Below are positions 47,010 through 48,392 of a stretch of 64,000 nt of DNA, piece by piece. Location: assembly GCA_951406725.2 (NCBI GenBank), contig OX597833.1, positions 26,350,001-26,414,000 on the forward strand, read 5' to 3'. The stretch's first letter is position 1; every line of letters begins with the position of its first letter. The position numbers and the translations under genes were made by a program. The notes below the pieces were generated by a model. That model did not search any database. It had not been told where the DNA came from and saw only the letters and a list, made by a program, of their open reading frames with translations. Source of the DNA: Octopus vulgaris. Taxonomy: Eukaryota.

Positions 47010-47210
47010 CATACGGCCTCAAATTTGGAGGAGAGGATTAAGCCGATTACCTTGAACCCCCAGTACGTAACTGGTACTTATTTAATCGACGCCCGAAAGA
47101 ATGAAAGGCAAAGTCGACCCGAAGAAATTTGAACACAGAACCTAAACGCAGACGAAATATGGCTAAGCATTTCGCCTGGCATGCTAACGACTCTGCCTGC
47201 TCGCAGCCTT
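47010..47210 (-). mobile_element. SINE family B
   Basis: CTGGTACTTATTTAATCGAC...AAAGGCAAAGTCGAC...GCTAAGCATTTCGCCTGGCATGCTAAC on the plus strand. Confidence 0.82.
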
Positions 47211-47832
47211 AATATTGATAATAATAATAATAATAATAATAATGAAGAAGAGGAGGAGGAGGACGACGACGACGACGACGAGAAGAAGAAGAAGAAGAAG
47301 AAGAAGAAGAAGAAGAAGAAGAAGAAGAAGAAGAAGAAGAAGAAGAAGAAGAAGAAGAAGAATCCGTAATCCACCTATTAATAATATAACGACACTCAGG
47401 GACCTTACTCACTTCAATGATAGCAACCCTAGTAATACCGCTTCTATTACTAGCAACCTGACCACATATAATAGCAGTGACAGCCTCACCCGGCCCAATA
47501 CGACTAATGATCACACATCCAATTCTTGTTTAAAGACAACAGATCATATGATCATAACCAGACCAGAAAAAGAATCCATACTAGGCCCACCGATTGTAGG
47601 AATTGCCGGATCACCCAACTTCCTAGGTTGGATGGTTTTGTTTACGCTATAATGTAGTATATAGTTGCCACGTAATAACACCACCTTTCTCACTAGGTTG
47701 GGATTTACATTGGTGAAACTGTTGGTTGCAAGTGGTAAGACCGGGCTGACATGAATTCGTTTTCAAATCGATCCTGTAGACTCTCTATCTGCAGATCGTA
47801 TTTACGTGCATCACTCTTTCTCTCCCTCTCTG

Positions 47833-47881
<49 letters not shown>

Positions 47882-47887
<6 letters not shown>

Positions 47888-48077
47888 TATATAGAAGGAG
47901 CTTCTACAGGACTAGAACTGTTTCATTCAAGAGAAATCTTCAGGAAGCGCTTCCTGAAGATTTCTCTTGAATGAAACAGTTCTAGTCTGTAAACTCCTTC
48001 TATATAATAAATTAATTTTACTCTGCTATGTATTGAGTACCTTATTTACTGTGGTTAACCCCGAATCAACCGGGACC

Positions 48078-48080
<3 letters not shown>
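47882..48080. mobile_element. (TA)n-embedded palindrome-plus-tail mini-element
   Basis: Perfect 78-bp palindrome at 47910-47987, extending imperfectly to 47882-48012, then a 70-bp tail and (TA)n. Confidence 0.8.
47900..47948 (-). ncRNA. Type I hammerhead ribozyme
   Basis: Minus strand GCTTC-CTGAAGA-TTTCTCTTGAAT-GAAA-CAG-TTCTAGTC-CTG-TA-GAAGC. Stem I 5 bp, stem III ACAG/CTGT, GUA triplet. Stem II is short (TTC/GAA, with U-U at its base). Confidence 0.75.
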
Positions 48081-48128
<48 letters not shown>

Positions 48129-48131
<3 letters not shown>

Positions 48132-48392
48132 CGCAGGCGTGGCTGTGTGGTAAGAAGCTAGCTCCCCAACCACATGGTTTGGTTGACTGAAACTGAGAGA
48201 AACCCGTCGTATATAAATGTGTGTGTCTATGTTTGTCCCCACCCATCGCTTGACAACCGATTTTGGTGTGTTTACCTCCTCTAAGAGACCGATAGAATAA
48301 TTACCAGGCTTACAGCGTATAAGTCCGGGGCCGATTTCTTCGACAAAAGGCCGTGCTCCAACATGGCCGCAGTCAAATGACTGAAAGAATAA
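48129..48392 (+). mobile_element. SINE family C, internally deleted
   Basis: GGCGCAGGCGTGGCTGTGTGGTAAGAAGC head and 3' end ATGGCCGCAGTCAAATGACTGAAA. Confidence 0.82.

Follow-up and report, generated by a model that had tools for sequence, protein, structure and literature searches.

The window, by which we mean the whole 64,000-nucleotide stretch of Octopus vulgaris DNA that was analysed, carries at 47882..48084 an insertion of ~200 bp in a (TA)n microsatellite, and this insertion is made of two head-to-head pLTR copies of a Hydra-clade Penelope-like element (PLE). Its order is (TA)n, a 67-nt inverted arm, a 136-nt forward arm and (TA)n again; with (TA)n on both flanks, a target-site duplication is unreadable. 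We number the element from +1, the A just before stem I of its hammerhead motif (position 1389 of L093, the parent copy), so that the arms in the window span +2..+68 (inverted) and +2..+141 (forward), and the parent open reading frame (ORF) starts at +184. The features are as follows:

47837..47883, no strand: left (TA)n target microsatellite, from the sequence and from the family's habit of inserting in (TA)n
47882..47948, minus strand: short inverted arm, +2..+68, with 67/67 identity to the L093 pLTR
47899..47948, minus strand: type I hammerhead motif, from boxes and stems, with a predicted cut after 47905
47910..47987, no strand: perfect 78-bp palindrome, with the head-to-head junction at 47948/47949
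47949..48084, plus strand: long forward arm, +2..+141, with four single-base deletions in the alignment to the parent
48013..48084, plus strand: "tail", +69..+141, present in one arm only; its counterpart in the parent is 5' UTR leading to the ORF
48081..48129, no strand: right (TA)n target microsatellite, from the sequence

A first-pass annotation of the window had reported a perfect palindrome at 47910-47987 centred on 47948/47949, and we recovered exactly this, with arms of 39 bp. It is the sole perfect palindrome with arms of at least 12 bp outside simple repeats in the 64-kb window, the other one listed at that arm length being microsatellite. The wider extent given earlier, 47882..48012, describes the palindrome once three single-base gaps are allowed, but the plus arm continues to ~48084 and the element is therefore larger. 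Similarly, the inversion had been placed exactly at the 5' boundary of stem I, which is correct for this locus, whereas the modal end in the family is A+1, one nucleotide further out. The junction of the window thus lies, in each arm, one base inside the proposed 5' end of the RNA, and a start at A+1 would lengthen stem I to 6 bp. No evident host exon came up among the ORFs listed for the window, and the segments at 47038-47215 and 48130-48380 resemble SINE fragments common in octopus genomes. The locus itself is an inert by-product. At another copy of the family (L012), the flanks beyond (TA)n on the two sides are mutual inverted repeats of ~20 nt.

The minus strand from 47948 to 47900 reads as a hammerhead, with a GCUUC/GAAGC stem I (5' strand at 47948-47944), the core box CUGAAGA (47943-47937), GAAA (47924-47921), an ACAG/CUGU stem III of 4 bp with an 8-nt loop containing CUAG, and GUA at 47907-47905, after which (47905) self-cleavage is predicted. 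CUGANGA, GAAA and NUH stand in order on this arm with stems I and III closing, an arrangement absent from the plus arm as assembled. A hammerhead descriptor found one match on the minus strand and none on the plus strand, compared with 0.01 per window in 200 shuffles of the window. Stem II is weak, with U.U at 10.1-11.1 followed by 3 bp and a pair probability of 0.03-0.2, and the motif has no stable stem II closed by G10.1-C11.1. Hammerhead families of Rfam were absent from the matches listed (150 of 280) and from a second search at E<=10, and the miRNA-precursor matches in Rfam were rejected as reflecting the hairpin and the microsatellites. Among family members, the two common substitutions of the hammerhead sit at N7 and in loop III (counts not de-duplicated), and we saw no compensatory changes in the hammerhead of this young family. 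As a motif, then, the minus-strand type I hammerhead described in the first-pass annotation stands on its descriptor match, its boxes and stems I and III, with stem II as its weak part.

The plus-strand twin had been called damaged, and so it is as assembled; at the plus-arm site, however, spanning contigs of three public runs restore the missing C, G and G. The missing bases are present at nearly all of the contig depth (169/169 in X15, ~137/139 in X16 and 41/41 in X17), with the limit that these runs may represent other individuals or species and that contigs drop rare variants. Identical plus-arm deletions recur across two subfamilies, and in a tandem array on contig C8, described below, such deletions occur solely in the five units that lie closest to the inversion centre. 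Nanopore reads lose bases within inverted duplicates, according to the accessible part of PMC7229812, and the plus-arm deletions are probably long-read sequencing errors. One could extend this argument to the palindrome as a whole and view it as a fold-back chimera of assembly or library preparation, in line with the higher count of indels in palindrome arms (12/88, versus 1/44 in unpaired arms; P=0.059). An artefact would account for the small deletions, however, and not for a palindrome whose fixed asymmetric ends are common to hundreds of loci and whose kind of junction is spanned by contigs of independent public runs. Since X15 contigs bridge head-to-head junctions of the family, albeit variant junctions and not the exact one of the window, we regard the palindrome as real, as had been supposed, and an artefactual origin as scarcely credible.

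A 29-nt piece of the forward-arm tail has 1,582 exact matches in the 2.8 Gb genome, and copies that run beyond the tail lead into an ORF. In the parent copy L093, a pLTR is followed by an ORF of 713 aa, then by a long run of simple repeats and another pLTR, which lies 4,784 nt after the first one. The protein comprises a reverse transcriptase (RT) and then a C-terminal GIY-YIG-type endonuclease, with, in order, RWR at 38, DKT at 116, YRDD at 347, CNCPDKTTC (CxCX5C) at 567, YIG at 603, CDLC (CxxC) at 667 and CMH (CxH) at 695. It thereby carries the RWK-like and DKT motifs, the CxCX5C linker and the CxxC and CxH pairs, and it has no CX2-5CxxC. The accessible text of PMC8557442 defines the Hydra clade by these motifs, a C-terminal endonuclease, a hammerhead and a (TA)n target, and the present family likewise inserts in (TA)n and has its hammerhead in the pLTR. 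Look-alikes of the protein in the protein atlas are annotated as HTH_animal and, in some cases, GIY-YIG or RVT_1, while Pfam gave one sub-threshold, unrelated match and the PDB gave none. By its motifs, the parent would be a Hydra-clade PLE, and its likeness to the Hydra proteins in the supplement of PMC8557442 was judged by eye. ORF copies are near-identical, mostly at 91-99% amino-acid identity, which suggests a young family. Many ORF copies lose the frame at one shared place near residue 494 (L231-L242, L091, L092, L094 and L097), either as a shared defective lineage or through homopolymer sequencing error. Between the ORF and the pLTR lie ~2.2 kb of degenerate (TA)/(TG) repeats (L093:3780-5960); the part adjoining the pLTR is common to several copies, and the element thus spreads microsatellite-like DNA.

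Breakpoints were compared in the first 100 tail matches on contig C1, of which 99 were analysed together and one (L155) was left out. An adjacent inverted arm in head-to-head orientation was present at 53 of the 99 copies, ending at +62..+72 in 51 of these 53, and forward arms ended at about +137..+141 into (AT)n, with the two commonest end strings making up 87/99. The 5' ends of the forward arms lay at +1 in 22 copies, +2..+5 in 11, +6..+10 in 9 and +11..+90 in 12; upstream of +1 they fell at -27..-1 in none, at -72..-28 in 5 and beyond -155 in 40. The arm that reaches further 5' ended at +1 or +2 in 36/53 palindromes, and the earlier expectation that breakpoints are non-random among copies was therefore correct. 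The boundary is a one-sided wall with a decay downstream, not a fixed fold point, and the junctions themselves are highly varied, with trims, microhomologies of 1-4 nt and templated inserts. The exact junction of the window, which has neither a G nor microhomology, occurs at 23 places genome-wide and in 1/53 sampled palindromes, and it is found in two subfamilies (12 with U and 11 with A at +11). An earlier sample, with an inverted partner at 30/40 scored places, was biased by its query and is excluded from these rates.

The 45/99 copies that extend past +1 look like copies of read-through RNA, and the locus of the omitted copy (L266) passes +1 to about -130 and inverts there. The U7 subfamily is enriched at the exact junction of the window, with 12/23 compared to 5/81 pairs in a sample partly biased to A7, perhaps through either a shifted start in U7 or the copying of whole units. 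We also observed that some 5' ends form a small group at -35..-50, immediately 3' of a C-rich tract (L047, L126, L137, L217, L219 and L245), which may mark a second start or a pause site, as well as short head-to-tail template jumps that join an internal position to +1/+2 (L061, L062, L095, L101, L105 and L204; +46 in L104).

In the parent and in read-through copies, TATAAAT begins at -29, the canonical spacing for RNA polymerase II when it starts at an A preceded by a pyrimidine. When the base before +1, natively T, is G or C, it is G in 93 and C in 7 of the first 100 of 575 matches, and a lone G before +1 occurs in 284 matches. Where the +1 end is joined straight to (AT)n, G precedes A+1 at 18/22 places (17/21 events; P=3.6e-8 versus 0.25), the remainder being A at 2, C at 1 and T at 1, and since (AT)n holds no G, this G is non-templated. 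These joins were drawn from the first 100 of 147 rows, which gave 63 places by hand count, 22 of them retaining A+1; all 18 places with G were viewed, two being a local duplicate and one having a tiny inverted remnant upstream. A contig of X16 joins +62 to +1 with one G between them. When a full-length 5' end bears one additional G, this is a known trace of a copied m7G cap, as stated in the accessible text of PMC4038843, which cites Gilbert 2005 and Volloch 1995 for cap copying. Judging from the wall, the TATA box and the extra G, the palindrome centre likely marks the 5' end of a capped transcript. The addition of a single C could also be the work of terminal transferase or of a brief, one-base fold-back on stem I, and the GG|AGC junction class, which makes up 11/24 of the ends that are neither native nor AGCT-fold, fits either.

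On the other hand, the promoter of Penelope in Drosophila virilis is internal and has no TATA box in the part of PMC2377424 available to us, which counts against a capped start of this kind. Splicing was also considered for the wall, with a 3' splice site in the TAG at -1..+2, and was rejected because copies retain +1/+2 and have no shared upstream exon. By eye, the record before Hydra-1_Obim in the supplement of PMC8557442 has a TATA-like run 12 nt before stem I of its hammerhead, and that record may share the layout of promoter then ribozyme. A junction linked to a TATA box and a cap-derived G was not found in the open-access literature that was searched, for which the supplements covered were those of PMC8557442.

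We consider it probable that the locus is a promoterless head-to-head stub, formed when both cut (TA)n strands were primed on one capped RNA and both cDNAs ran off its 5' end. RNA polymerase II would start at A+1, placing the hammerhead in the first 51 nt of the transcript; the endonuclease would cut both (TA)n strands; and one strand would prime at ~+141 and the other at ~+68 on uncleaved RNA. Both cDNAs would then extend to the cap, which would often be copied as a single C, and they would be fused head to head by end joining that involves small trims, templated inserts or microhomology. The centre would coincide with stem I because the RNA begins there. Among 82 head-to-head pairs, in which near-duplicates may remain, 80 combine one short with one long arm and 2 are long/long, with the qualification that most samples were anchored on the tail and short/short pairs are largely invisible to them. 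Unpaired copies end at either site (+68 or +141), and the two arms agree at subfamily position +11 in 23/23 places with the exact junction and in 80/81 pairs. This agreement points to one template, and one active source at a time could also produce it. In 7/53 palindromes, the long arm starts at +57..+90, so that each arm holds sequence that the other lacks or barely overlaps; such a cluster is expected of twin priming and is only suggestive. At L204 the arms look as if they came from two subfamilies, but they differ at one marker only. The accessible text of PMC11167929 describes a Poseidon element whose protein, predicted to be a dimer, cuts and extends both strands in vitro. Extension starts at two sites inside the RNA, by which the tail is defined, and the template is mainly RNA that is uncleaved. 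The same study saw no strand preference of the start sites, however, and this counts against our model, in which the short/long rule needs one.

The main rival is self-priming, in which a single cDNA, or else an antisense RNA, would fold back at its tip, the self-complementary AGCT at +1..+4 being one possible site, and would serve as its own template for the second arm. No other single junction type is as common as the AGCT-centred one (9 loci, 18 strand counts), subfamily markers are common to both arms, and PMC3846280 (Arkhipova et al. 2013), in its accessible text, argues for self-priming on antisense RNA from junction palindromes. Fold-back does not lead us to expect that unpaired copies end at +68 by themselves, that arms barely or never overlap in 7/53 palindromes, or that the side with the short end can be the longer one, as in the C8 array (26 versus 5 units), although a hairpin that later lost its tip could look like some of these asymmetric cases. 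Junctions without a loop, including that of the window, are also hard to make in this way, and a cap G at +1 is not expected from an antisense template. We therefore judge fold-back unlikely. A further alternative, that of the first-pass annotation, is that on a longer RNA the hammerhead halts the RT, or makes it switch, at the 5' edge of stem I. The +1 end is the edge of a 6-bp stem I, stem I complementarity joins the arms in 6/9 matches of a targeted search, and stem I could template the GG|AGC class, but 45/99 copies read through +1, and such a structure explains neither the spacing of the TATA box nor the G in (AT)n joins. In addition, the predicted probability of stem I falls from 0.99 in +1..+51 to 0.25, 0.20 and 0.02 in longer RNAs, which have a competing hairpin, and the RT would presumably have unwound stem I before meeting its 5' strand. 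The claim that ribozyme structure sets the breakpoint is thus not supported, as the wall at +1 accompanies a TATA box at -29 and a non-templated G, and we hold this alternative to be quite improbable.

Less probable still is that the palindromic unit is a non-autonomous element that was copied whole and had its hairpin tip eroded later. The sharing of the exact junction by 23 places, with enrichment of one subfamily, and the uniform outer ends would follow from such copying; yet junctions are highly varied and contain templated inserts, one and the same junction is present in two subfamilies, the stub is without a promoter, and the outer ends are the two priming sites of long and unpaired copies as well. 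We also rejected the idea that the centre arises by hammerhead cleavage, since the cut lies at +45/+46 and 0/53 palindromes are centred there. Priming of both cut strands on one capped RNA remains our preferred reading.

If transcription begins at A+1, the hammerhead would form the first 51 nt of the message. Folding predictions give stems I and III for the isolated hammerhead RNA, and downstream sequence adds a competing hairpin. Almost all inserted copies span the cut site, and therefore their templates were uncleaved. There are weak hints of cleaved templates, namely 5' ends at +44..+46 (6/21) and 3' ends at +45 (9/14), but TA microhomology confounds both counts. A further weak hint is a tandem in L104 whose join lies at +46. 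Stem I does serve as a 6-nt microhomology at the join in the 6/9 targeted matches, so that the ribozyme can shape individual joins as had been proposed, but only a small minority of family members show this. RNA transcribed across the palindrome is predicted to fold into a hairpin (-88.6 and -91.7 kcal/mol), and to this extent the suggestion that the ribozyme is sequestered in a hairpin was sound; the stub has no promoter, however, and a functional role of sequestering is unsupported.

On contig C8, we observed an array of 271-nt units (G000:C8:91,475,2xx-91,483,4xx; L071-L090 and L106), each spanning -45..+229 with the TATA box and the hammerhead. Of its 31 units, 5 lie on the minus strand and end at +141 while 26 lie on the plus strand and end at +68, and the junction between units occurs only in that array. 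The array resembles a retrozyme and may have been left by an RNA template that was circular or multimeric. Non-LTR retrozymes are defined, in the accessible part of 10.64898/2026.07.22.740005, by head-to-tail tandem units with a type I hammerhead each, and the locus in the window differs from them in being head-to-head. A more tentative proposal, to which we give somewhat less than even chances, is that integration in this Penelope-like clade is double-ended by design: a dimeric RT-endonuclease would prime the two target strands on one capped RNA, at fixed sites separated by 73 nt, and would extend both copies to the cap, leaving by default a 200-bp palindrome that records the start. The hammerhead would fill the first 51 nt, its cleavage would remove the cap, and it would be switched off in RNAs that are inserted; the C8 array would be the same reaction rolling on a ribozyme-made circle.

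Palindromes of PLEs have long been described and their origin debated, with antisense self-priming put forward in 2013 and two internal start sites in vitro in 2024, the final product being left unsettled. More than 1,500 copies of a young family offer base-level evidence that the centre is likely the 5' end of a capped sense RNA, and a near-strict rule of one short and one long arm also emerges from the family. A hammerhead at what would be the very start of the message bears on the purpose of these ribozymes. In LINE-1 twin priming, two primers on one RNA lead to an inversion; here, both cDNAs usually extend to the 5' end, and their overlap makes the product a palindrome and not a non-overlapping inversion. 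The family resembles LINE-1 in the non-templated G at a full-length 5' end (PMC4038843, accessible text).

Among PLEs, as far as the available texts describe them, the closest relatives are the Hydra-clade elements (Craig et al. 2021, PMC8557442), which share the C-terminal endonuclease, the RWx, DKT, CxCX5C, CxxC and CxH motifs, the hammerhead and the (TA)n target. Hydra-1_Obim of that work is a different family by eye comparison, Hydra-clade PLEs are generally <3 kb whereas the present repeat unit measures 4.8 kb and contains, downstream of its ORF, a long run of simple repeats, and the present YGFKS resembles the GxKF/Y motif, which PMC8557442 says is not conserved in the Hydra clade. The type I hammerheads of PLEs (Cervera and de la Pena 2014, PMC4209133) have the same core boxes, short helix I, pLTR location and palindromic bases in loop III, and pairs on opposite strands were noted there; in contrast to those described in the accessible text, the present motif has a stem III of 4 bp with an 8-nt loop, which is not minimal, and a weak stem II without G10.1-C11.1. 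Poseidon of Anolis carolinensis in vitro (Frangieh et al. 2024, PMC11167929) is similar in the cutting and extension of both strands, the two internal start sites that define the tail, the AT-rich target and the uncleaved RNA template. It differs in the lack of strand preference of its sites and in its hammerhead, which overlaps the ORF start whereas the present one lies 5' of the ORF, and head-to-head products are not a subject of the accessible text.

The head-to-head architecture, the junction palindromes and the one-sided tail are already published in the accessible texts of PMC3846280 and PMC8557442, for inverted-pLTR insertions of endonuclease-positive PLEs. The locus in the window has the form of these insertions, with an inverted, 5'-truncated pLTR copy placed head to head and a tail on one end, and the junction palindromes and microhomology joins of the family agree with them. 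On the other hand, the present stub is minimal (~200 bp), makes up about half of the sampled copies and has a tail of 73 nt compared with 30-40 in the insertions described. Its junction is tied to a likely capped start of the RNA, where PMC3846280, in the text accessible, invokes antisense self-priming.
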